A DNA stretch of 20,000 nt from an uncultured virus (IMG/VR IMGVR_UViG_3300021138_000003) (IMGVR_UViG_3300021138_000003), one strand, 5' to 3'. Shown: positions 192 through 20,000, counted from the first letter of the stretch. Numbers and translations: made by a program. Notes: a model not told the origin generated them from the sequence alone.

Positions 192-857
192 ATGAGACGA
201 CAATTTAATGACAAAGAATTAGAATTATTACACAATTTAGATTATAGTTCGAAAGAATTAGAAGAAATTTTAGGATTACCTAGTTATACTATTCAGCAAT
301 CTCGCAATAAATTAGGTATTAAAGCAAAAATTGGGCGGCCTTCGGGTATACCTTCATCGTTAAAAGGTGTAAAGAGATCAATCGAAATAGGTAAAAAAAT
401 TTCGTTAGCAAAAAAAGGAAAAGCTAATCCTAATAAAACGCGAAAAGAAACTAGAGAATGCATAGGTAAAGAATGTAATAATATGTTTATAGTTGTACAG
501 TCTAGTTCTAAAAAATATTGTTCTCATTCCTGCCAACAACGAACAACAAATGTTGCAAAAAAAGGAATAGGTACTAGAAAAATTCGTAATATATTAACGC
601 CAGAATATAAACGTTACGCAAGAAAAGTTCACGGGTTAAGTCAAAAAATATATGAACAAAATATCAATATAATCAATCCTAACAATTACCCCAGAACACG
701 TTGCGGAATAGATGGCGGCTGGCAACTAGATCATATAATTCCTATCAAAGAATGTTTCGAAAAAGGGTTAACTCCTCAAGAAGCATCACAAATCAGTAAC
801 CTTAGAATGTTACCATGGAAAGATAATTTAATGAGGCAATATGGCATTTCGAATTAA
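192..857 (+). CDS. Free-standing HNH homing endonuclease with N-terminal DNA-binding modules
   Basis: C-terminal HNH-like motif WQLDHIIP...SNLRMLPWKDN, a Cys cluster (CIGKEC...KYCSHSC) and a basic NUMOD3-like segment (KKISLAKKGK). It sits between gp47 and gp46. Confidence 0.8.
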   Translation: MRRQFNDKELELLHNLDYSSKELEEILGLPSYTIQQSRNKLGIKAKIGRPSGIPSSLKGVKRSIEIGKKISLAKKGKANPNKTRKETRECIGKECNNMFIVVQSSSKKYCSHSCQQRTTNVAKKGIGTRKIRNILTPEYKRYARKVHGLSQKIYEQNINIINPNNYPRTRCGIDGGWQLDHIIPIKECFEKGLTPQEASQISNLRMLPWKDNLMRQYGISN

Positions 858-2628
858 GAGTTTAACTTTGAAAAACTTCCTCTCAGTAGGAAATCAAACC
901 CAGGCAGTCGATTTTGACAAAGAACATCTCACACTAGTTCTAGGTGAAAACCTAGATCTCGGTGGTGATGATAGCGGTAGTCGAAATGGAACGGGCAAAA
1001 CTACTATGATCAACGCACTTAGCTATGCATTATATGGCCAAGCGTTGACCAACATTCGAAAAGAGAATTTAATCAATAAAACTAATGGTAAACACATGTT
1101 GGTTACTGTAGAGTTTGAAACAAAGGGTTCTACTTATCGAATCGAGCGTGGTCGTAAGCCTAACGTCTTAAAACTGTTTAAAGATGATCAAGAACAGAAA
1201 AAAGACGAAACCGAAGACGACGCACAAGGGGATAGCAGAGAAACCCAAAAAGATATTGAACAACTCCTAGGCATGAAGCATACTATGTTTAAGCACTTGG
1301 TTGCGCTTAACACATATACCGAACCGTTCTTATCTATGGGTGCTGCTGCACAACGAGAAGTCATCGAACAGCTATTAGGTATTACTGTTCTCAGCGAAAA
1401 AGCTGAAAATCTTAAAATAGCAATGAAAAAAGTCAAAGACGACATTCAATTAGAAACATTTAAAATTGAAAGTATTAAGACCGCCAACAGCAATGTTCAA
1501 AAAAGCATCGATAGCATCTCTATTAAAAGTACTGCTTGGGAAAATAAACAACAACAAGAAATAGATAAGCTAGGTAAAGCTATTATAGAATTAAGTTCTG
1601 TTGATATCGATGCAGAACTCAATGCCCATGTTACTCTTAAAGAATGGAATACAAATATTTCAACTAAAAGAGAACTGGTAAAACAGCAGGCAACATTAGA
1701 GTCTGCACTAAGTCGAGCAGAAAAGGCTGTGGACAAATACGCTAGAGAAATTTCTTCTCTAGAAGATAAAAAATGTCCCAGCTGCGAACAATCATTGCTC
1801 GATCATAAACACAGCGAAATGGTAGAAATTGTTAAAAAAGATCACAAAGAAAGCGTCATTTATGCAGATAAAGTCCGCAATGACTTATCAGTAATCAATG
1901 TCGCATTACAAGAGCTCGGAGATTTAACAAAGCCCGCTGATACATTTTATGAAACAGAGAGTGAAGCTCTAGGTCATAAAAATAATCTTGCTAGTTTAGA
2001 AAACAGTTTGGAATCTAAACTATTAGAGATGAACCCTTATCTTGAGCAAATTGAAGATCTAACGGAAACTGCACTCCAAGAAATTGATTGGACTACAGTT
2101 AATGAGTTGACAAAACTTAAAGATCATCAAGATTTCATGCATAAGCTACTAACAAATAAAGATTCTTTCATTAGAAAAAAGATCATAGATCAAAATCTAA
2201 GTTACCTAAACAAAAGATTGAGTTACTATGTCAGTAAACTAGGATTGCCGCATTTAGTGGTATTCCAAAATGACCTATCTGTAGAAATTACACAGCTAGG
2301 TCAAGAACTAGATTTTGACAATCTAAGTCGTGGTGAACGAAATCGACTAATTTTAAGTCTAAGTTTTGCGTTCCGCGATGTTTGGGAAAACTTATATCAA
2401 CACATTAACCTACTGTTTGTAGACGAGCTAATCGATGCTGGCATGGATGCCGCTGGCGTAGAAGCAGGGTTAAGCGTACTGAAGAAAATGGCCAGAGAAA
2501 GAAATAAAAACGTATTTTTGATCAGTCATAAAGATGACTTAGTTGGTCGAGTAAACACCGTTCTACGAGTAATCAAGGAGAACGGTTTCACGAGCTATGA
2601 TTCAAATCCAGAATATGTGGAGGCCTGA
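841..2628 (+). CDS. gp46: Rad50/SbcC-like ATPase, recombination endonuclease subunit (T4 gp46-like)
   Basis: Walker A (NGTGKT), coiled coil with CPSC zinc hook, ABC signature (LSRGER), Walker B (LLFVDE) and H-loop (ISH). GAGG SD at 833-836. Confidence 0.93.
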   Translation: MAFRIKSLTLKNFLSVGNQTQAVDFDKEHLTLVLGENLDLGGDDSGSRNGTGKTTMINALSYALYGQALTNIRKENLINKTNGKHMLVTVEFETKGSTYRIERGRKPNVLKLFKDDQEQKKDETEDDAQGDSRETQKDIEQLLGMKHTMFKHLVALNTYTEPFLSMGAAAQREVIEQLLGITVLSEKAENLKIAMKKVKDDIQLETFKIESIKTANSNVQKSIDSISIKSTAWENKQQQEIDKLGKAIIELSSVDIDAELNAHVTLKEWNTNISTKRELVKQQATLESALSRAEKAVDKYAREISSLEDKKCPSCEQSLLDHKHSEMVEIVKKDHKESVIYADKVRNDLSVINVALQELGDLTKPADTFYETESEALGHKNNLASLENSLESKLLEMNPYLEQIEDLTETALQEIDWTTVNELTKLKDHQDFMHKLLTNKDSFIRKKIIDQNLSYLNKRLSYYVSKLGLPHLVVFQNDLSVEITQLGQELDFDNLSRGERNRLILSLSFAFRDVWENLYQHINLLFVDELIDAGMDAAGVEAGLSVLKKMARERNKNVFLISHKDDLVGRVNTVLRVIKENGFTSYDSNPEYVEA

Positions 2629-2879
2629 TGTCAGAACTGATAAACAAGTATACTGAACTACATGACGAGTTTATAGACGCATTAGTTGAGTACCATACTT
2701 TACATCTATCGTTTTTAGAAAGACAAAGTCCATCTAGAACTTCAGATTTAAGAAAAGTTTTAAAAAGATTGCGACTAACCGCGAAGGCCATGGAACAAAT
2801 TGCCCAACTACGTAAAAAAGAAAGAAGCGTAGAATGGAGCGCAGTCAACAGAGTAAAAAAGGATAATACAAATGAGTGA
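2628..2879 (+). CDS. Small helical basic protein, possibly a diverged Hc1-like paralog
   Basis: TGATG coupling to gp46. Shares an RKxLxxLxxxxK...KxxR pattern with the next gene. Confidence 0.65.
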   Translation: MSELINKYTELHDEFIDALVEYHTLHLSFLERQSPSRTSDLRKVLKRLRLTAKAMEQIAQLRKKERSVEWSAVNRVKKDNTNE

Positions 2880-3066
2880 TACAACAACCGCAATTCAGAC
2901 CGCAGTAGATTCGTTTCTAGCAGAAGATGCTAAGTTTACCAAGGGTAATGCTGCTGCCGGTACTCGTGCTCGCAAGGCACTAGGTGACCTCGGCAAGCTC
3001 GTTAAGACTCGTCGTAACGAAATTACTGCTGAAAAGAATGCACGCAAGGAAGCCAAGGCCAAGTAA
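2872..3066 (+). CDS. Histone H1-like (Hc1-family) nucleoid protein
   Basis: Motif F-x-KGNAAAGTRARKAL resembles Hc1-like proteins. Lys/Ala-rich tail and strongly biased, highly-expressed-type codons. Confidence 0.75.
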   Translation: MSDTTTAIQTAVDSFLAEDAKFTKGNAAAGTRARKALGDLGKLVKTRRNEITAEKNARKEAKAK

Positions 3067-3492
3067 TTGACCTGGTTCTTTCAGAACAATATTGTATCTG
3101 AACTACCCGAAGACTGTGTTGGTTTCGTTTATTTGATTACCAACACGGTCTCCGGCCGTATGTACATAGGCAAAAAACTAGCAAAATTTTCAAAGACGAC
3201 CTACAAAACTGTAAAGTTGAAGAACGGCACAAAAAAACGTAAAAAAATTCGAGGCAAAATTGAATCTGATTGGCAAACGTATTATGGTTCAAGTGAGAAC
3301 CTAAATGCAGACGTTGAGGCCTTAGGCAAGGATAAATTCAAGCGAGAGATTCTTTATTACTGCAAGTCTAAAGCAGAATGCAGTTATGTTGAAGCTCGGG
3401 AACAATTTAACCGTAAAGTTTTAGAAACAACAGATTATTATAACGGACATATTTCCGTCCGTGTACATGGCTCACACATTAAGAAACTGTAA
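3067..3492 (+). CDS. Short GIY-YIG nuclease
   Basis: GFVYLITN...RMYIGKK motif, WQTYYGSS, conserved E (EAREQ) and YYN. TTG start directly follows the previous stop. Confidence 0.8.
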   Translation: MTWFFQNNIVSELPEDCVGFVYLITNTVSGRMYIGKKLAKFSKTTYKTVKLKNGTKKRKKIRGKIESDWQTYYGSSENLNADVEALGKDKFKREILYYCKSKAECSYVEAREQFNRKVLETTDYYNGHISVRVHGSHIKKL

Positions 3493-3493
3493 T

Positions 3494-3775
3494 ATGACTG
3501 ACTATAATAACGCAAAAAAACACGATTATGATCTACAAGATATAATTGCGTTGGAAAAAATTAGGCACAAAATTCAAGATCCTAAATGGCAAAACTATAG
3601 TCTCGGCAAAACTAAAAACAGACCACTATCTCAAAATACAAAAATCAACTTAGGCAAACACGAACAACACGATTGGCAACCACTCAAAGGTCCATTTGGT
3701 CCACATGCAGGCAAGATAATTTGTAAGACCTGCAAAGACAAATGGGTCGCATGGCTTCCTAAAGGCTCCATCTAA
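3494..3775 (+). CDS. Hypothetical protein with C-terminal His/Cys Zn-ribbon-like motif
   Basis: ATG 3494 lies 1 nt after the GIY-YIG stop. Motif GPHAGKIICKTCKDKWVAWLPK. Confidence 0.65.
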   Translation: MTDYNNAKKHDYDLQDIIALEKIRHKIQDPKWQNYSLGKTKNRPLSQNTKINLGKHEQHDWQPLKGPFGPHAGKIICKTCKDKWVAWLPKGSI

Positions 3776-3780
3776 GGCAC

Positions 3781-4125
3781 TACAGTTCGTAACACATAAG
3801 GGTGTCGGCCCAGTACTAAACCGATGTGGAAAAGGCGATGATTCCTAGTCGCACACGTAACATGTTAAGCATTCCCCACTGGGTCTAAGATTGACATAGA
3901 ATGTCTGTTACCATTCGAAAACACTAATGCTCTTAAAAACCTTGAGGACGGAACGAACCCAAGGATACTACAAAATTGCTTGTAGGATGTCGCGGTAGGC
4001 AGGGAAAGCGCAGAGCCCATAGAGCGGGTGTATAAACAAGGAACCTACTTCCAATGTCTTGGCTGTGAGAACTCACATGAAAACCAAGGATGGCGGAACC
4101 TTTAAGGAGGTTCCGTCTGACTGCA
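3781..4125 (+). ncRNA. Candidate large structured non-coding RNA (family unassigned; strand inferred from operon direction and G-U pairs)
   Basis: No ORF of 60 aa or more. Many helices, e.g. 3807-3814/3878-3885, 3893-3897/3901-3905, 3940-3944/3960-3964, 3968-3973/3980-3985, 4058-4062/4084-4088 (enclosing 4064-4068/4073-4077) and 4092-4101/4108-4117. Confidence 0.55.
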
Positions 4126-4134
4126 ACAATCTAC

Positions 4135-4241
4135 ATGAATATTAAGTTGCTTCGCTCATAGATTCATATAAATCAAACTAAATGAAAAAAGAAAAATTGC
4201 TTCGAACGATTAGTGAAGAAGCAAATGAGCTTCAGCTCATT
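4135..4241. repeat. Cluster of GCTTC/GAAGC-containing inverted repeats
   Basis: TTGCTTC 4197-4203 pairs with GAAGCAA 4218-4224. AATGAGC-TTCA-GCTCATT at 4224-4241. GCTTCGC at 4149-4155 reads GCGAAGC on the minus strand. Confidence 0.6.
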
Positions 4242-4247
4242 ATTATA

Positions 4248-4254
4248 ATAAATA
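4248..4254 (+). promoter_or_regulatory. T4-like late promoter (ATAAATA)
   Basis: Located ~25 nt upstream of ATG 4279, with a GGAG SD in between. Confidence 0.6.
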
Positions 4255-4278
4255 AAACATCGCTTGTGGAGCATAAGA

Positions 4279-5112
4279 ATGAAAATCAATGAATTAATGA
4301 CTGAATCGCAGATAGATGAATTAAGTCTAGGTGGGATTGGCAGAGGGCTAGCTAAAGGAGTAGGTGGGTTTGCTAGAGGTGCAGGCGCACTAGCTGGCGG
4401 CCTTGCAGGCGCTGGCGCTGCTGCTCGACAAGGATATGCTGCTGGTCGATCAGCAGTTAGTGGTCAAACTCTGACTCATTCAAATGGCAGATCAATTAAA
4501 AAAGGCGAACAGTTTGATGCTGTAACTGGTAAACCATTACCACAAGCTAGTGAACAACCATCTCCGCAAGCTACTACAGCAGCGCCTATTTCGCAGGGTA
4601 CAACTCCTACACAAGGTACTGCAACTACTTCACAGACTACAAATCCATTTGCTGCACCTACTGTTCCTCAAAGACCTGCAACTACTACTAATTTTAGAAG
4701 TCCAACTAGCGGAGGCATCACTACAGGTGGTAGCTTATTACGTACTGGTTCAACAACTGCTGCTTCAAAGGCTCCGCAAGCCGTTGCTCCTACTCCTAAA
4801 GCTGCTGCTCCTCAGGCCGCTAAGATATCTCCAGAAGAACAGCAATGGGAAGCAAATCTTAAAAAGCAAGGTATGACTCCTGACGAAATTGAAAAGGCTC
4901 GTCCGGCTTATCGAGCTCGTCAAAATAGACCACTTCCGCAGGCAGGTGGTACAACACTAGCTGCTAATAGACCAGCAATGAAGTCTGGAGATTATGATTG
5001 GGCAGGCGGAGGAGTTGGTCCAGACACTAAAATAGGCGATATTAAAAATATGCAGAAACCTACATCAGAATCTGTGATTTTTTATAGTAAATTTCTAGGT
5101 CAAGACATTTAA
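4279..5112 (+). CDS. Low-complexity Gly/Ala/Pro/Thr-rich protein, putative internal head protein
   Basis: Starts MKINELMTE (capsid-targeting/cleavage-like leader) behind a late promoter. Gly-Ala-rich N-terminal part and Pro/Thr/Ala linker. Confidence 0.65.
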   Translation: MKINELMTESQIDELSLGGIGRGLAKGVGGFARGAGALAGGLAGAGAAARQGYAAGRSAVSGQTLTHSNGRSIKKGEQFDAVTGKPLPQASEQPSPQATTAAPISQGTTPTQGTATTSQTTNPFAAPTVPQRPATTTNFRSPTSGGITTGGSLLRTGSTTAASKAPQAVAPTPKAAAPQAAKISPEEQQWEANLKKQGMTPDEIEKARPAYRARQNRPLPQAGGTTLAANRPAMKSGDYDWAGGGVGPDTKIGDIKNMQKPTSESVIFYSKFLGQDI

Positions 5113-5855
5113 TTATTGGAATTTTTAAGAGATGCAAATCGCGCCTTGCGGCCTTCTGAAATTGCTCTCTTATGTTCTTCGGATTTAGGCTTACGCATTT
5201 TTTGTTTAGTCTCTTCAGATTTTGGTCCAAGTTTCTTTCCCTTGAGGCTATCTGATAATTTCTGTTTATGTTCTTCGGATTTAATTTTGCCTTTGAGGCC
5301 AGCCGATATTTTTTTAGATATTTCTTTTTTCTGTTGGTCTGAAAATTCTACAGGATCTCTATTTTTCTGCGCAATACTCATTCTTTCTTTTTGCGCTAAA
5401 GTTCGCGTTTTTCCTATATTTGCTATCCGGCGTTTTTCTATAGTTTCTGGAGAAGATATGCGCCCTAAATTTCCTTTTGAAATATTAGCACGATGTTCAC
5501 TACTTAATATTTTACCTTTAAATTTCTCACTTTGAATTTTAGAGGCTTCTTTTTTAATAACTTCATATAATCTAGAATTAATATATCGATGTTGATATTG
5601 TCGTGCGCGTTTCATTCCGTTGCACGCATAAATCATTTTATGATAATCATTACCAATTGTGAACTTAGTTAATAAAAAATGACAAATAAAATGTTCTCTA
5701 GCTGTTAATCTCACAAGATTTGATTCATCATTATTACCACCTAAGCTTCTTGGTATTATATGATGTACTTCGGAATAATCTAAAATCCTATATTGTGATT
5801 TTGCATTCTGAATGATATTATTATACCATTTATTATATTTGTTATCTATAAACAT
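5109..5855 (-). CDS. HNH homing endonuclease with C-terminal NUMOD3-like repeats
   Basis: EVHHIIPRSLGG...NLVRLTAREHFICH, followed by repeated KSEEHKQKLS/KSEETKQKMR/KSEEHKRAIS motifs. Confidence 0.88.
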   Translation of the reverse strand: MFIDNKYNKWYNNIIQNAKSQYRILDYSEVHHIIPRSLGGNNDESNLVRLTAREHFICHFLLTKFTIGNDYHKMIYACNGMKRARQYQHRYINSRLYEVIKKEASKIQSEKFKGKILSSEHRANISKGNLGRISSPETIEKRRIANIGKTRTLAQKERMSIAQKNRDPVEFSDQQKKEISKKISAGLKGKIKSEEHKQKLSDSLKGKKLGPKSEETKQKMRKPKSEEHKRAISEGRKARFASLKNSNN

Positions 5856-5908: not shown

Positions 5909-6139
5909 CTAAAAGAAATTAAGACCAGTTTCTTTGGTTGTATTGAGATTATCTTCGATAATTCCGTAGATAATCTCACGAGTTTCAACATCTAGTTGAA
6001 ATGCTAGGTCTAGGGTAACACTACCTCTCATAAACCAACAAATTTTAAGTAGATCTTTTTTAATAGCCTTGGAATCTTTGTCAAATTGAAGTACAAAATC
6101 TTCAATCTCAGAGCTATCGAGTGTTAAGATCTTTGCGCG
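5909..6139 (-). CDS. Unannotated -1 frame extension of the gp26-like chaperone (gpT/gp51-like segment)
   Basis: Open frame RAKILTLDSSEIEDFVLQFDKDSKAIKKDLLKICWFMRGSVTLDLAFQLDVETREIIYGIIEDNLNTTKETGLNFF* (TAG 5911-5909). It has no ATG/GTG/TTG until an internal Met at 6031 and is entered by the slippery heptamer at 6145-6139. Confidence 0.7.
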   Translation of the reverse strand, partial: RAKILTLDSSEIEDFVLQFDKDSKAIKKDLLKICWFMRGSVTLDLAFQLDVETREIIYGIIEDNLNTTKETGLNFF

Positions 6140-6993
6140 AAAAAATCCGAGTTGTCCATTGTCACTGGGAGAAGATATGTTTCAGGTGCACCTGCTTCAA
6201 TCTGCTCTTCAGATGATCTAATTGTTATTGGCTTAAGACTGTTTGCATCGCGCATGGCAGCAATGTGTTCTTGTATTTTTTTGTAAACATCTTTGTCTGC
6301 ATTATCGAGAAATTCTTTAATAAATTCTCGTTCTCTAACAATTGTGCCCGGGATTTCTATGGCTTTAATACTTTCGACTGTGAGATCTAAAGTAATATCG
6401 CTCATAGAGCCTAGTCCTTGATTGTAAATTTCTAATTTTTGTTCTTCACTTAACTCGTCATTATTTGCCGCCTGTAATAGACGCTGAGTTTCAAAAGTTT
6501 TTAAACTGGTATTTGTAAGATGTTTGTATGTTAGCGGACGAATGAAACAAGTTAAATTATCAGTGATCTGCACAGCTTCTTTCCACGGATCTGATCTTGA
6601 TAATTCGTCGAGCAAGATGCGTAGGTCGACTTGGTAGGTTACATCTTCGTTGGTGTTAGGAACTCGATGAGTGAGATCCATCATTTCTCCGTAGGTTGCT
6701 AATCTAATAGCAATTAACAGAGTATCAACGTCGATGTTTGGAGTATCCCAGGCATTTTTGATGTTAGGAATGCAGCTCTCGATCACATCAACTACTGCTT
6801 GACCGTTGAGTAGCGCATCAGGAGTTTTAAACATTAGTTCATCTTTGGCAGTCATGGAATAAACTGGCAATTGGCCGTTTTCTGGATAATTGATACTACC
6901 ATCGGGCCAATAGGCTCCGTTGCTGGGTAAACTAATGTAGATCTTAGGTTGTCTCATGAAGTTAGACAACGGATTTTGTTTAGATACAGTCAT
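6124..6993 (-). CDS. Baseplate hub / tail assembly chaperone (T4 gp26-like), paralog B
   Basis: NPL...RQPKIYISLPS...MTAKDE...SCIP...DTLLIAIRLATYG pattern resembles gp26-like hub proteins. Adjacent to the tape-measure-like gene. Confidence 0.7.
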   Translation of the reverse strand: MTVSKQNPLSNFMRQPKIYISLPSNGAYWPDGSINYPENGQLPVYSMTAKDELMFKTPDALLNGQAVVDVIESCIPNIKNAWDTPNIDVDTLLIAIRLATYGEMMDLTHRVPNTNEDVTYQVDLRILLDELSRSDPWKEAVQITDNLTCFIRPLTYKHLTNTSLKTFETQRLLQAANNDELSEEQKLEIYNQGLGSMSDITLDLTVESIKAIEIPGTIVREREFIKEFLDNADKDVYKKIQEHIAAMRDANSLKPITIRSSEEQIEAGAPETYLLPVTMDNSDFFAQRS

Positions 6994-7002
6994 GTATTAT
7001 CC

Positions 7003-7869
7003 TTATAAGAAGAAATTAGTAGGTGTAAACTCTACAGTTACTTCGATTTCTTCCTCTTTACTGATTTGTTTAATCTCGTCTGTGGCCTTAACCTTAACGG
7101 GTTTAACGCTATTTGCAGAGGATTCGGTGTCAATTTTGTTTTTAATTATATTGAACAATTCTCTGTCACATTGTTCTACAAATTCTTTGATAAAGAATTC
7201 ATTTTCTACAACTTCTTCTCCGGATTCAACTCGTGATATTGAATCTGCTACAGTGCTAAGGGTATATTGAGATAATTTATTGAAACTATTTTTAAATAAT
7301 TCTAATTTTCTATCCTCGGACATTTCGTCATCATTGACTACACTCATAATTTTCTGAGTTTCTAGTGCTTCTAATCCAGCTTTAGCAATTGTTTTATAAG
7401 ACAACGGTTTGATATAAATTTTCAAATCATCATTGATTACTAGTTCTTCGTCCCAGGATGCATCATTATATAATTGATCTAAAATTAGTGAAAGATCGAC
7501 ATCAACTGAAAATAATACATTATTAACAGTTACTGGAGATTTTAAAATATTACCATAGGTTGCAATCCTTATTGCAACCAATAACGCATCTAAATCTATA
7601 CTAGGAATCGACCAAGCATTTTTTATAGACGGAATGCAACTTTGAATAATGCTTACTAATGCCTGTCCGTTTGCAAGTGCAACTGGATTTTTCAATGCAA
7701 TTTCGTCTTTGGCAGTCATGGAAAATACATCATATTCATTGTTCTCTGAAAAGTCGATAGACCCTTCGTCCCAATAAATTCCTCTACTTGGTAATTTTAC
7801 CTGTAATTTAGGCTGCCGCATGAGGTTTGATAAAGGGTTGACCTTTGGTTTATGTAGTGTTTTCTGCAT
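7003..7869 (-). CDS. Baseplate hub / tail assembly chaperone (T4 gp26-like), paralog A
   Basis: Full-length similarity to 6124-6993 (NPLSNLMRQPK, MTAKDE, SCIP.IKNAW, AIRIATYG, IKPLSYK, LETQ). Confidence 0.7.
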   Translation of the reverse strand: MQKTLHKPKVNPLSNLMRQPKLQVKLPSRGIYWDEGSIDFSENNEYDVFSMTAKDEIALKNPVALANGQALVSIIQSCIPSIKNAWSIPSIDLDALLVAIRIATYGNILKSPVTVNNVLFSVDVDLSLILDQLYNDASWDEELVINDDLKIYIKPLSYKTIAKAGLEALETQKIMSVVNDDEMSEDRKLELFKNSFNKLSQYTLSTVADSISRVESGEEVVENEFFIKEFVEQCDRELFNIIKNKIDTESSANSVKPVKVKATDEIKQISKEEEIEVTVEFTPTNFFL

Positions 7870-11390: not shown

Positions 11391-14252
11391 ATGGCATGGA
11401 AGAAGTATTTTACTCCCGTTGTAAATGACGGAAGTACAAGTCCTGTAGGCAGTGTCGGTAACCGTGCGAATCCTAGTCGTACTAACTATTCAAGCTATTT
11501 GCCTGATGTGTATAGCGGCCACCCGAACAGACTAGAACGTTATCAGCAATATGATACTATGGACAGCGACAGTGAAGTTAATGCTGCGCTAGATATTCTT
11601 GCAGAATTCTGCACTCAAATGAATGATAGCAATGGTACTCCGTTTGAATTATTCTTTAAAGAAGAAGCTACTCAAACAGAAATTAAAGTTCTACGTAAGT
11701 ATTTGCAACAGTGGACTAAACTTAACAAGTTTTATACTAGAATCTTTAAGATTGTTCGTAATACCTTCAAATACGGAGATGCTTTCTTCGTTCGTGATCC
11801 CGAAACACAGGCATGGATGTATATTGATCCTGCTAAGGTAGATAAAATTATTGTCAATGAATCCGACGGTAAAGTACCAGAACAATACGTTATTCGTGAT
11901 TTAAACATTAATTTACAGAATCTAACTGTTACTCAGATTAATCCTAGTAACATGAATGGAACTGGTCAAGGCAGCAATTACATGGTTGCTGGCGCACAAC
12001 AGCGCGGCATGGTAGGCGGAGCACCGCAGAATGCAGGCGGCCGTTTTCAGATTAATCAAAATCAATATGCAATTGATGCTAACCACGTAATTCACATTTC
12101 ATTAAGTGAAGGATTAGATAATAATTTTCCTTTTGGTAACAGCTTAATGGAAAGCATTTTCAAAGTTTACAAGCAAAAAGAATTGCTTGAAGATGCTATC
12201 ATCATTTATCGTGTACAGCGTGCTCCTGAACGTCGCGTATTTTATATTGACGTTGGTAACATGCCAAGCCACTTAGCTATGGGATTTGTTGAACGTGTTA
12301 AAAATGAAGTTAATCAGCGTCGTATTCCTAGCTTAACAGGTGGCGGCACTAGCGTTATTGATGCTTCGTATAATCCGCTGTCAATCAATGAAGACTACTT
12401 CTTCCCCCAAACTTGTCTCGCACTAGATGAAAAAATTAAATTACTAGATGGTCGCGATTTATCTCTTATTGATATTATTAAAGAATATGAATCTGGTAAA
12501 GTCAACTACGCATATACGGTAAATCAAGAAACTCATGAAATTGAACCAGGTAAAATTGTGTGGGCAGGAAAGACACGTCTTAATACACAATTAGTTGAAG
12601 TATTGCTTGATAACGGAGAAAAGATTAAAGTCACTCCGGACCACAGATTTATTATGCGTGATGGATCTGAAGTAGAAGCACAACATCTAAAAGAACAAGA
12701 TAGTTTAATGCCATTATATCTTCATGATGCAACTACAGGGAAACACCAAGGTGCTGGAAAGTATTTGAAGTATACTTGCAATGCTACTGGAAAGAAAAAA
12801 TGGGTACATACTATGGTATGTCCAAAATCAAGACCTGGTAAAGACACAGAAATTCACCATATCGATCTCAATAGTAGAAATAATGATCCTACTAATTTAG
12901 TTGAGATGAATACACACGACCATAGAGATCTTCATAAAAAATTAGGAACATATCATTTAACTAATGCATGGAACGATCCTATTAAACGAGCAAAAATTAT
13001 CGAAGGTACAAGGAATTATCACGCGAATGCAACTGCTGAAGATAAGCAGATGTTTATGACTCGTGGAAAGAAAAATGGCGCTGCAACATGGACCAATAAA
13101 GGTAGTGCCGATCGCGTTAGAAAATCATTATCCGACACTAGAAAAATTGTATCTGTAAATAAAACAATAATATACAGTGACGAAATGGCCGCAAGATTAG
13201 TTGATTTATATAATGAAGGATATGATAGTATTACTAAACTTACTAAAGTTCTTCGTGACGATGATATATTTCAAAATGAATTTAGAATAGCAAATCCTAA
13301 TCTCCTAAGAGATAAAAATCGTCCTAATAAAATTTTACCAACTGATACTACACTTGTAAAGATGGCTCAATTTATGGGATATAATGGATGGAACGATTTT
13401 AAAAAGACTTATGCTGTAAATCATAAAGTTGTTTCAGTAACTTGGTTAGAGGAATTAGAAGATACTGGGGATATTACTATCGAATCAAAAAGTAATTCCC
13501 ATAATTTTGCATTAACTGCTGGTGTGTTTATACACAACAGCGAAGGTCGAGGATCAAAAGTTGAAATTCTACCAGGTGGTACTAACCTAGGTGAAATTGA
13601 CGACCTTCGTTACTTCACTAATAAACTGTTTAGAGCGTTGCGTATTCCTAGCAGTTATTTGCCTACTGGCCCAGACGATGGCGGATCAAGTTTTAACGAC
13701 GGGCGCGTTGGTACTGCTTATATTCAAGAACTGCGATTCAACAAATATTGTGAACGACTACAAAGTCTTTTAAATGACAGTTTTAATACTGAGTTTAAAT
13801 TGTTCTTGCATGATCGTGGTGTTAATGTTGATCCGATGTTGTTCGACATTAAATTTAATCCTCCTCAAAATTTTGCTGCTTATCGTCAGGCTGAAATGGA
13901 TACTGCTCGCGTTAGCACTTTCCAAACTATGGTAGGGATTCCTTTCATAAGCAAAAGATTTGCACTAAAGAGATTCTTAGGTCTTAGCGAAGAAGAAATT
14001 GCAGAAAATCAAACTAAGTGGCAGGAAGAAAATATTGAAAATATGAATAATCCTATGAATGCCGCAGCTGAAATGCGCGCAGGCGGTATTACTGCCGGTG
14101 GTGCTGCTGCTGATCTAGGAGCAATTGACGCTGCTGGTATACCTCCGGAAGGTATGGACGGAGATATGGGAGCAGGCGAACCAGGAATGGGTACTGCACC
14201 ACCTGCAAGCGGCGGAGCACCTAATGCAGGACCTGGCGGCGGCCAGATGTAA
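11391..14252 (+). CDS. gp20: Portal vertex protein (T4 gp20-like), intein-containing precursor
   Basis: LLEDAIIIYRVQRAPERRVFYIDVGNMP, EDYFFP, LPGGTNLGEIDDLRYF..KLFRALRIPSS are gp20-family motifs. Confidence 0.93.
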   Translation: MAWKKYFTPVVNDGSTSPVGSVGNRANPSRTNYSSYLPDVYSGHPNRLERYQQYDTMDSDSEVNAALDILAEFCTQMNDSNGTPFELFFKEEATQTEIKVLRKYLQQWTKLNKFYTRIFKIVRNTFKYGDAFFVRDPETQAWMYIDPAKVDKIIVNESDGKVPEQYVIRDLNINLQNLTVTQINPSNMNGTGQGSNYMVAGAQQRGMVGGAPQNAGGRFQINQNQYAIDANHVIHISLSEGLDNNFPFGNSLMESIFKVYKQKELLEDAIIIYRVQRAPERRVFYIDVGNMPSHLAMGFVERVKNEVNQRRIPSLTGGGTSVIDASYNPLSINEDYFFPQTCLALDEKIKLLDGRDLSLIDIIKEYESGKVNYAYTVNQETHEIEPGKIVWAGKTRLNTQLVEVLLDNGEKIKVTPDHRFIMRDGSEVEAQHLKEQDSLMPLYLHDATTGKHQGAGKYLKYTCNATGKKKWVHTMVCPKSRPGKDTEIHHIDLNSRNNDPTNLVEMNTHDHRDLHKKLGTYHLTNAWNDPIKRAKIIEGTRNYHANATAEDKQMFMTRGKKNGAATWTNKGSADRVRKSLSDTRKIVSVNKTIIYSDEMAARLVDLYNEGYDSITKLTKVLRDDDIFQNEFRIANPNLLRDKNRPNKILPTDTTLVKMAQFMGYNGWNDFKKTYAVNHKVVSVTWLEELEDTGDITIESKSNSHNFALTAGVFIHNSEGRGSKVEILPGGTNLGEIDDLRYFTNKLFRALRIPSSYLPTGPDDGGSSFNDGRVGTAYIQELRFNKYCERLQSLLNDSFNTEFKLFLHDRGVNVDPMLFDIKFNPPQNFAAYRQAEMDTARVSTFQTMVGIPFISKRFALKRFLGLSEEEIAENQTKWQEENIENMNNPMNAAAEMRAGGITAGGAAADLGAIDAAGIPPEGMDGDMGAGEPGMGTAPPASGGAPNAGPGGGQM
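12414..13538 (+). mobile_element. Intein (375 aa) with internal HNH endonuclease domain
   Basis: N-terminal CLALDEKIKLLDG, block B VTPDHRF, C-terminal HNFALTAGVFIHN followed by Ser(+1). Internal EIHHIDLNSRNNDPTNLVEMNTHDHRDLH. Removal restores EDYFFPQT-SEGRGSKVE. Confidence 0.92.
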
Positions 14253-18709: not shown

Positions 18710-19378
18710 ATGAACAAATACGCAAAATATTATCATCTAATTATTGACAATCGAAAACTAAATCCTTTGAAGGATCAATATACTGAAAAACACCACATAT
18801 TTCCACGAAGTCTAGGCGGCAGTAATGGTCTTGAAAATTTAGTTAATCTGTCTGCTAGAGAACATTTTATATGTCATTGGCTATTAACAAAAATGTATAC
18901 CGGCACTGACTGTGGAAAAATGATCAATGCGATGTATATGATGCGAGGCAACAGTACCTATCAAAAACGATACGAGAGTAATATCACTGCACGAATTTAT
19001 GAAAATCTTCGTGAAGAATATTCACAATACATTTCTAAAATGAATACTGGCAGAATTCAACCTCCTGAAGAAAAAGCAAAACAAATTGCAGCAATTACTG
19101 GAAGAACTCGCCTGCCGTTCAGTGATGAATGGAAGGGAAATCTTTCAAGAAATCATAAAAGTAAACGCGGATTTAATACATCACATAGTGAGGAAACACG
19201 TAAAAAAATGAGTGAAAAAGCAACGGGGCGTAAACAAACTCCGGAAACTATTGCAAAAAAATCCGAAGCAATACGAGGTAGTAAACGAGAAAAACTACTC
19301 TGTCCACATTGTCAACAGTTAATTGCAGTAAATACATATCCACGCTGGCACGGTGATAACTGTAAGGAAAAACGTTAA
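18710..19378 (+). CDS. HNH homing endonuclease with NUMOD3-like repeats and C-terminal Zn motif
   Basis: EKHHIFPRSLGG...NLVNLSAREHFICH, HSEETRKKMS and CPHC...WHGDNCK. Same family as 5109-5855. Confidence 0.88.
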   Translation: MNKYAKYYHLIIDNRKLNPLKDQYTEKHHIFPRSLGGSNGLENLVNLSAREHFICHWLLTKMYTGTDCGKMINAMYMMRGNSTYQKRYESNITARIYENLREEYSQYISKMNTGRIQPPEEKAKQIAAITGRTRLPFSDEWKGNLSRNHKSKRGFNTSHSEETRKKMSEKATGRKQTPETIAKKSEAIRGSKREKLLCPHCQQLIAVNTYPRWHGDNCKEKR

Positions 19379-19628: not shown

Positions 19629-19908
19629 GATAACTTCTAGAAATGCAATGTGGATAGGTTTTTATAATCAACAAGAAGTTGATCAAAAATATCAAAGTAC
19701 TGTTAAAATGTGCAATATGCTTCTTAAATTAAAACATCGATCAAAATATCCTTACGCAATAGACACAATTAACGATTTTAAAAATACTGCAAATAAGATA
19801 TTGAACACTAAATTTCCTGATCCTGATGATCCAGACATTGTAGCCCTTATCAACAAAATTAAACAAATGATCGAACACTTATCTGCTTTAGAATCCCAGT
19901 TACACTAA
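19615..19908 (+). CDS. Hypothetical protein, possibly head-targeted (MRIFEI leader)
   Basis: GTG start with AGGAGA SD at 19602-19607. Confidence 0.6.
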   Translation: MRIFEITSRNAMWIGFYNQQEVDQKYQSTVKMCNMLLKLKHRSKYPYAIDTINDFKNTANKILNTKFPDPDDPDIVALINKIKQMIEHLSALESQLH

Positions 19909-19970
19909 ATACAATGTCGTTTTTTATTATGCAGCACCCACTGCGTAGACCTAGAACGTCATTTAAGGAG
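19905..19970 (+). promoter_or_regulatory. Late promoter plus structured 5' leader
   Basis: CTAAATA 19905-19911, hairpin TATGCAG-CACCCA-CTGCGTA 19928-19947, short GAC-CTAGAAC-GTC hairpin 19948-19960, then AAGGAG SD. Confidence 0.5.
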
Positions 19971-19977
19971 AAAACAA

Positions 19978-20000
19978 ATGGGACGTCCTATTAAAGCAAG
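19978..20000 (+). CDS. 5' end of a late gene (MGRPIKA...), partial
   Basis: ATG after a strong AAGGAG SD. Runs off the end of the window. Confidence 0.7.

Follow-up and report, generated by a model that had tools for sequence, protein, structure and literature searches.

A gap without genes in a 20,000-nt stretch of DNA from an uncultured virus (IMG/VR IMGVR_UViG_3300021138_000003; the whole stretch is referred to here as the window) almost certainly holds a plus strand gene for a large, pseudoknotted non-coding RNA of an uncatalogued family, termed W-type here. The gene occupies positions 3788-4139, perhaps with tail hairpins to 4241. The RNA is ~350-450 nt in size, and the carriers of the family are uncultured aquatic T4-like jumbo phages, both fresh-water and marine. 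Conservation and covariation in 56 distinct relatives bear out an earlier proposal, made from the sequence alone, that a large multi-domain structured phage RNA with a pseudoknot is encoded here.

The same sequence-only reading had drawn attention to the lack of an open reading frame (ORF) and to a raised GC content, and both are as it described them. No substantial ORF separates the stop at 3775 from the ATG at 4279; the longest within 3776-4278 is 51 amino acids (aa), on the minus strand, and a plus strand ORF of 36 aa at 4182-4292 was rejected as a gene because, by eye, a 1-nt indel breaks its frame in relatives. The GC fraction is 0.455-0.465 over 3700-4099 and 0.31 in 3400-3599 and 4100-4299. 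Thermodynamics by itself gives the structure no support: the plus strand minimum free energy (MFE) of -94.1 kcal/mol has an unremarkable z-score against shuffled controls (z = -0.80; 19 of 100 shuffles fold as well), which counts against an RNA, and the z-score of the minus strand is -1.64.

Conserved core and twin boxes

Loci around relatives of the gene for the gp46/Rad50-like ATPase (841-2628 in the window, in the cluster upstream of the gap) were gathered from IMG/VR, where 158 stretches matched and 80, representing 75 distinct loci, were kept. Full-length look-alikes of the gap are present in three of the 75 (L008, L011 and L042, with 65-72% identity), and L005 resembles its first 102 nt before the contig ends. 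A pattern taken from a conserved block matched at least 120 further stretches in viral contigs of IMG/VR. Enough upstream sequence was available for 72 of them, 69 being distinct; after L008 and L042 had been added, 56 distinct sequences had the 5′ motif at the expected distance, and 15 without a match to the 5′ motif expression, several of them with another kind of 5′ domain, were dropped. In the resulting alignment of 56 full-length relatives, with the window as its first row, long invariant blocks alternate with hairpins that vary in sequence and length. A scan of bacterial genomes with the pattern gave 12 matches, 8 of them chance and 4 real members of the family. The latter sit in metagenome-assembled genomes labelled Crocinitomicaceae and Neomarinimicrobiota, and as they are probably binned phage contigs no reliable host can be taken from them.

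All column pairs of the alignment were scanned for stacked covarying pairs, and an explicit structure of 78 pairs was then tested by counting. Pairing is possible in 88.6% of its cells, and sliding the partners by 1-3 columns lowers this to 34.8-41.2%. Cells changed on both sides number 375 as against 20-84 in the slid controls, and none of 500 shuffles reaches the observed percentage, covariation score or double-change counts. Since the aligned sequences are relatives, covariation cell counts put the number of independent events too high, which weakens this evidence; the slid controls, however, preserve that relatedness yet fall far short of the observed pairing. In the supported helices G-U cells exceed A-C cells by 295 to 54 and the folded strand is therefore the plus strand, in agreement with the G-U pairs on that strand to which the sequence-only reading had pointed.

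There are twelve covarying helices, of which three (H1, H7 and H8) are pseudoknots, and all listed pairs are standard in the window. Eight helices (H1, H2, H3, H5, H6, H8, H9 and H10) are paired in 99-100% of cells and four (H4, H7, Hx and H11) in 82-90%, the lower values being partly caused by the alignment. The core to which they belong, 3788..4139, aligns over its whole length in the 56 relatives, and every feature of it given below is on the plus strand. Its 5′ strand of H1, GUAACA (3789..3794), pairs with 3906-3911 and so ties the 5′ end to the loop of H6; H1 is 100% paired and three of its six pairs change on both sides (CG43/AU11/GC2, CG42/UA14 and AU44/GC11). The hairpin H2 (3804-3808 with 3821-3825; 99.3% paired, 3 pairs changing on both sides) holds a conserved GGGCCAG-type block in its loop. 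Next to it H3 (3826-3828 with 3854-3856; 100% paired, UA50/AU6) encloses a GGAAAA bulge and the hairpin H4 (3835-3839 with 3848-3852), which is 82% paired with all five pairs changing on both sides. H5 (3862-3868 with 3891-3897; 99% paired, 3 pairs changing on both sides) encloses a segment that is 22 nt long in the window and up to ~75 nt in relatives, and it is followed by the hairpin H6 (3899-3903 with 3912-3916; 99.3% paired, 5 of 5 pairs changing on both sides).

The central part is opened by H7, whose 5′ strand GCUCU (3929-3933) pairs with 4021-4025 (88% paired, 4 of 5 pairs changing on both sides); a related strain in one metagenome has 3933 T>C together with 4021 A>G, the partners of one H7 pair. 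Hx (3940-3944 with 3960-3964; 82% paired, 3 of 4 pairs changing on both sides) encloses a GGAACGA block that is invariant in the alignment. Hy (3968-3973 with 3980-3985) is a hairpin whose site is fixed and whose length is not, its stems ranging from 2 bp with a tetraloop to ~35 bp, and each of the 50 parsed sequences folds there into one hairpin only, with a mean MFE of -10.9 as against -4.4 for shuffled sequence. The pseudoknotted centre, 3992..4048, consists of H8 (3992-3994 with 4009-4011), H10 (3995-3999 with 4044-4048) and H9 (4002-4004 with 4016-4018), each of them 100% paired, with 2, 2 and 1 pairs changing on both sides; H8 crosses H9 and H10, and H7 crosses H10. There is moderate support for H12 (4058-4062 with 4084-4088), at least four contiguous pairs being present in 39 of 51 sequences with a mean run of 5.25, compared with 4.87 after partner swapping (maximum 5.16 in 200 swaps). 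H11, a 10-bp hairpin at 4092..4117, is 90% paired and its changes are mostly one-sided, involving G-U.

Measured against the 56 relatives, seven of the eleven helices first proposed by eye are conserved and four are private to the window. Those with GCGAT/GTCGC, CCTTG/CAAGG and GGCGGAACCT/AGGTTCCGTC are supported, CTTGG/CCAAG moderately so, and CTACAA/TTGTAG is the variable-length hairpin that folds in every parsed sequence. GCTCT/AGAGC and GTAGG/CCTAC are both supported and do cross, and the pseudoknot proposed on that account is real. No better than their controls are GGCCCAGT/ACTGGGTC and GACAT/ATGTC, with 49% of cells paired as against 30-55% in slid controls, while TGTGA/TCACA is 44-76% paired without covariation. 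The supposed end-closing helix, CAGTT/GACTG, has all five of its pairs in only one of 56 sequences, the window itself. The reading of the core has thus stood and that of the 5′ end has not, since the latter pairs with the hairpin loop at 3906-3911; and in place of the extent of 3781-4125 first given, conservation extends over 3788-4139 and, in the tail hairpins, on to 4241.

The 3′ part of the core has two boxes of 11 nt each, ~58 nt apart. Box 1, ACUCACAUGAA (4071..4081), is a constant ACUC followed by the 7-nt core ACAUGAA, and box 2, AUCUACAUGAA (4129..4139), is a constant AUCU followed by the same core. The order of the module, namely box 1, the hairpin H11, UGAC and box 2, is that found in the window, where H12 encloses box 1 and H11 lies between the boxes. 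The cores of the two boxes are identical in 88 of 89 distinct RNAs, counting W-type and the second form considered below, and in 177 of 179 loci. An unbiased scan of IMG/VR, in which the constant letters were fixed and both cores left free, found at least 120 stretches with 111 distinct modules; among the matches listed 108 of the 111 have identical cores, in 16 variants that all conform to NNAURAN, where 1 in 128 modules would be expected to do so by chance. Two of the three non-identical modules look like chance matches in coding sequence and the third differs at the last base. When a new variant of box 1 came to light in a metagenome contig a matching box 2 was predicted, and it was seen in 11 of 11 parsed loci (12 matched). 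As the 16 core variants are mirrored in both boxes, some reader must check at least 7 nt twice.

Mutual information for the box core singles out only the other box; the next-best column was rejected as a partner of the box, since it belongs to a helix of its own and reflects a clade effect. A role of the boxes as a promoter motif was likewise set aside, YACATGAA being present in the 20-kb window only at the two boxes. There is one twin-box module per contig in 10 of 10 long contigs, these being 25-43% complete. The end of box 1 and the bases that follow (4077-4090, AUGAAAACCAAGGA) resemble the start of the downstream gene (4279-4292, AUGAAAAUCAAUGA) at 86% over 14 nt, probably by chance since relatives with AUA boxes do not have the resemblance.

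The Polynucleobacter-1 form of the RNA

Most related phages have a different RNA in the same slot. Weinberg et al. 2010 (PMC2864571) list Polynucleobacter-1 in their Table 1 as a likely RNA with 'cis-reg? y' and give its source as Burkholderiales from fresh water or estuary; the drawing in the supplement extends past what became the Rfam model, RF01718, and marks a possible pseudoknot. No other paper in the searchable literature names the motif. The window RNA is likely the counterpart of RNAs whose 5′ third is the Polynucleobacter-1 motif and which occupy the same slot in related phages. In 15 loci inspected, an ORF-free gap of ~440-520 nt follows the gp46 cluster and precedes a gene on the same strand, with two of the gaps carrying short, probably spurious, ORFs, and 12 of the 15 have in the gp46 cluster an ORF of 141-144 aa like the GIY-YIG nuclease gene of the window. 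In the majority form the first ~140 nt of the gap are Polynucleobacter-1 and matches to RF01718 fall inside it, with 84-115 bits in 7 of 10 syntenic loci and 89 bits in L012; the three syntenic loci with no match are the close relatives of the window. Long contigs have exactly one RF01718 match each in 5 of 5 of the Polynucleobacter-1 form and none in 5 of 5 of W-type.

The Polynucleobacter-1 motif is akin to the window RNA in being from fresh water or estuary, behind a small GIY-YIG gene and before the same downstream gene, and further along the RNAs that bear it have the twin-box module and tail hairpins of the window RNA. Two tail hairpins, B and C, together with the slot and the layout of the boxes, are shared by both forms. 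On the other hand, W-type has conserved blocks and helices of another kind in its 5′ and central domains, and the Rfam model, at 141 nt, takes in no more than the first third of the full RNA. The profiles do not recognize each other's form, and this speaks against a common origin: RF01718 has no match in the window at its gathering score (37 bits) or at expectation values (E) up to 10, none in 20 W-type loci at E up to 1 and none in a 251-nt search of L008, while a profile of the W-type core finds nothing in 70 syntenic loci outside the W-type group of the window. Homology therefore rests on slot, layout and tail hairpins. Helices P1-P4 of the Polynucleobacter-1 motif comprise a hairpin, GGAA-hairpin-AC and a long-range helix around a UAUCC hairpin; by eye, W-type relatives with a long insert have a similar order and similar motifs (GGAAAA, a hairpin and ACACG, then AGUAUCCUGAAA..GGAAG), the window being without the UAUCC segment.

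Several RNAs (L086, L089, L092, L081, L088 and others) combine the same twin-box module with a quite different 5′ domain. The family appears to be modular, different 5′ domains being combined with a 3′ module that stays constant. As to cultured relatives, a blastn search of the GenBank phage collection with the window RNA and with one typical RNA each of the W-type and Polynucleobacter-1 forms gave no match. Judged by gp46, the nearest phages in culture are Pseudomonas phage PA5oct and Sinorhizobium phage Phosso; each has unannotated gaps in the vicinity of gp46, and neither has an Rfam, profile or twin-box match. These stretches of 1-1.5 kb (L347 7020-8534 in PA5oct; L348 7401-8416 in Phosso, where it adjoins an RNase HI gene) have no or only tiny annotated ORFs and no detectable similarity to the RNA.

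The tail hairpins lie on the plus strand of the window at 4198-4223 (B, with an inner GA/GA and tetraloop motif) and 4224-4241 (C), and the two are either a putative 3′ end of the RNA or a separate element. An nhmmer profile built from the window and its three relatives finds resemblance in ~50 related loci, those bearing RF01718 included (E ~1e-17 to 1e-4), and compensatory changes are seen by eye. Hairpin B is the part most conserved between the two forms of the RNA. Its outer stem covaries (UGCUUC/GAAGCA versus UGCGUU/AACGCA) with retention of the inner GA/GA, which is tandem G-A-like, and of a loop of four bases. It looks like a protein-binding module.

Expression and mode of action

Judged from sequence, the RNA probably has no promoter of its own and would be transcribed as the 3′ end of the early gene cluster that extends from gp46 to the GIY-YIG nuclease. 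No sigma-70-like promoter was found between the upstream ORF and the RNA, and no terminator-like site for intrinsic termination was found on the plus strand in 2500-4500. The conserved RNA sets in where the upstream ORF, usually that of the GIY-YIG nuclease, comes to its end: in 30 of 54 distinct loci the UAA stop of this ORF is within the conserved CACNUAAGG block, and in the others it is mostly 4-24 nt upstream, the distance in the window being 18 nt. Candidate T4-late-promoter-like sites were seen by eye on the plus strand past the boxes, AAUAAAUA at 4247..4254, similar to the T4 late-promoter consensus TATAAATA, and TATAAAT at 4167-4173, and relatives, again by eye, also have late-promoter-like sites between the RNA and the next gene.

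The best overall explanation, which comes down modestly on the likely side, is that the W-type RNA is a stable trans-acting RNA with one reader of both boxes. It would be transcribed with the early cluster and have no leader role for the downstream late gene. The upstream stop codon often falls inside the first conserved block of the RNA, and H1, by pairing the 5′ end with a downstream hairpin loop, may help it to persist as a stable RNA. A rigid core made up of the 5′ and central domains would display the boxes at 4071-4081 and 4129-4139 to one sequence-specific reader that is present twice, either a protein dimer or a nucleic acid in two copies, and the RNA would act in trans as scaffold, decoy or sponge. 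Display of both boxes to one reader with action in trans is, tentatively, the single most likely mode of action.

Several observations sit uneasily with this explanation. No reader was identified: in cis no exact or 6-of-7 complement of the boxes occurs at a consistent place, and in trans a wobble-tolerant search of 10 long contigs for complements gave extra exact 11-mer matches in 4, all inside unrelated coding sequence. All 143 RNAs inspected have a short hairpin behind box 2, with a U-tract after it in only 8 (L111 is a clean example), and this leaves the 3′ end undefined. Lastly, among the sequencing runs in which the DNA of the window was found there is no RNA run.

The hairpin behind box 2 is also a reason to consider that the element acts in cis, as a 3′ untranslated region or boundary element. 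The fold would then sense the upstream gene's translation or termination, the two boxes competing for one partner in the manner of an attenuator, and would control the stability of the messenger or read-through past the early cluster into the late gene. That the upstream stop is inside the first conserved block, the H1 region, in 30 of 54 loci fits such a role, as do the constant position of the RNA in the 15 inspected loci, with the early cluster before it and a same-strand gene after it, the occurrence of the hairpin directly after box 2 in all RNAs inspected, the pairing of at least 4 nt of box 2 with downstream sequence in the MFE fold of 67 of 143 RNAs and the 'cis-reg? y' entry for Polynucleobacter-1 in PMC2864571. 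No covarying anti-box was found, however, the hairpin after box 2 is without a U-tract in 135 of 143 RNAs, the late-promoter-like sites seen by eye downstream of the RNA would bypass the control, and a 350-nt core with 12 helices far exceeds what an attenuator needs. Both the sensing and the control of stability or read-through are unlikely, though they are the alternative that fares best.

Next in order is the possibility, an improbable one, that the RNA is a partner of the GIY-YIG nuclease, a subunit that targets, tethers or regulates it and in which the boxes provide bivalent recognition. The nuclease gene (3067..3492, plus strand) is small and stand-alone, and its 141-aa product is a catalytic domain only, with no DNA-binding domain, matching Pfam PF19835 SegE_GIY-YIG at E 9.5e-34 over residues 3-129 of 141 and PHROG 447 at E 1.1e-36; no relative was found by sequence among solved structures. 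Of 112 distinct loci with sufficient flank, 101 have a homologue immediately upstream of the RNA, both forms of the RNA being represented, and the 'digital' co-variation of the boxes resembles nucleic-acid recognition. The loci are, though, syntenic relatives in which linkage is not independent and so is weak evidence, and 11 of the 112 have no match to the nuclease, L013 and L060 among them despite kilobases of flank. No target complementary to the boxes was found, and 7-11 nt are too short for unique targeting. That RNA and nuclease form one ribonucleoprotein, an RNA-directed enzyme in which recognition comes from the RNA and the twin boxes are a bivalent guide or tether, is more doubtful again; no RNA-directed GIY-YIG enzyme is known to have been described.

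A self-processing ribozyme is at about the same low level and marginally below it. Cleavage or ligation at or near the boxes, or at its own 5′ end, would release the RNA from the messenger, and many invariant unpaired blocks with three pseudoknots, a location right where a gene ends, the absence of a promoter for the RNA itself and two identical sites would suit that; there is, against it, no match to an Rfam ribozyme or intron family at E up to 10 and no exon context. Least credible is that the boxes act as DNA, as iteron-like direct-repeat sites for a phage DNA-binding protein at an origin or regulatory site with the RNA structure a separate matter: the repeats are identical within a genome and different between genomes, as protein-binding iterons are, and the slot adjoins recombination and replication genes (gp46), but the boxes are set between helices that covary as RNA with G-U asymmetry, are limited to two copies in each of the 10 long contigs and recur nowhere else in the 20-kb window.

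The phage, known RNAs and the meaning of the family

The source phage of the window is T4-like and uncultured, and its DNA is present in fresh-water metagenomes. It is probably a jumbo phage of ~350 kb, because the nearest cultured phages by major head protein (~69-71% identity) are jumbo phages of 310-470 kb and related IMG/VR contigs of 90-150 kb are rated 25-43% complete. Upstream of the RNA a gene for an Hc1-like small protein is located between the gp46-like gene and the nuclease gene, and an ORF of 93 aa with a Cys motif (3494..3775, plus strand) is between the latter and the RNA. This ORF has no match in Pfam or PHROG searches and is upstream of the RNA in only 7 of the 112 distinct loci. 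The nuclease ORF stops at 3492, just ahead of the start of the Cys-motif ORF at 3494; the two could represent a nuclease that has become separated from a binding domain it once had. The downstream gene (4279..5112, plus strand) encodes a low-complexity protein of 277 aa with no family match in Pfam or PHROG, and in the 15 loci inspected a same-strand gene begins 16-57 nt past hairpin C.

After the 277-aa gene comes an HNH endonuclease gene (5109-5855, minus strand), one of three genes of the HNH/NUMOD homing type in the 20 kb; the others are at 192-857 (plus) and 18710-19378 (plus), and the phage is rich in selfish nucleases. Two baseplate-hub paralogues (PHROG 150) are in tandem on the minus strand at 6124-6993 and 7003-7869. 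The portal gene (11391-14252, plus strand; 953 aa) matches the PHROG portal family in two stretches, with HNH-endonuclease matches at approximately residues 461-526 in what looks, from its sequence, like an intein or homing endonuclease insertion, and it is followed by the protease and major head genes. A further Rfam match lies near the end of the window, where RF02980, freshwater-2 RNA, scores 56.6 bits (gathering score 49.9) at 19907-19980 on the plus strand; its last bases, AAGGAG..AUG, coincide with the beginning of the following gene.

Few large RNAs have many conserved helices and pseudoknots, and those characterised are nearly all ribozymes, riboswitches or cores of ribonucleoproteins. 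Comparison with the familiar classes gave no match, as in the sequence-only reading, which could not match the RNA by eye to transfer RNA (tRNA), transfer-messenger RNA, RNase P or group I or II introns. No Rfam family matches the gap at its gathering threshold or at E up to 10; in particular group I and II introns, RNase P and known self-cleaving ribozymes have no match at E up to 10 over 3600-4400, and ARAGORN reports 0 tRNA or transfer-messenger RNA genes in the 20-kb window. A likeness of GGGAAAG..CAGAGCCCAUAG to the core of RNase P or of introns was rejected as it does not fit the pairing of H8 and H9.

Attenuators and T-box leaders also have two like segments able to compete for one partner, followed by a hairpin, and the box core NNAURAN, being an AUG or AUA triplet and then A, loosely recalls the T-box specifier, which is a codon and a purine. 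W-type differs from both in that there is no covarying complementary third segment and mostly no U-tract, and it has no T-box family match; the flanking positions of the boxes are also kept identical, which a codon-only reading leaves unexplained.

The Rfam families GOLLD and ROOL (cryo-EM paper PMC12286853) are alike in general character, being large, phage-associated and heavily pseudoknotted non-coding RNAs of unknown function that came from comparative genomics. In contrast to them the W-type RNA, at ~350-450 nt, is smaller, has no Rfam match to either and has no tRNA genes adjacent to it in the window. The candidate structured RNAs of a Fremin-type catalogue (PMC10690425) are likewise from IMG/VR phage contigs with covariation evidence; they are, unlike W-type, 29-151 nt long and unnamed, and two conserved W-type motifs were not found in the six searchable supplementary files of that paper. 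No RNA catalogue, meaning Rfam and the searchable part of the IMG/VR candidate catalogue, thus lists the W-type form. The novelty first claimed for the RNA holds in that W-type is absent from Rfam, and has to be tempered in that the slot and 3′ module are common to Polynucleobacter-1 RNAs.

W-type RNA is widespread, with at least 120 stretches by IMG/VR pattern scans, in jumbo phages of both fresh-water and marine origin. The orphan Polynucleobacter-1 motif, for its part, makes up no more than the first third of a phage RNA of ~450 nt. The twin boxes provide a concrete experimental handle, and with their reader identified a whole family of phage RNAs would gain a function.

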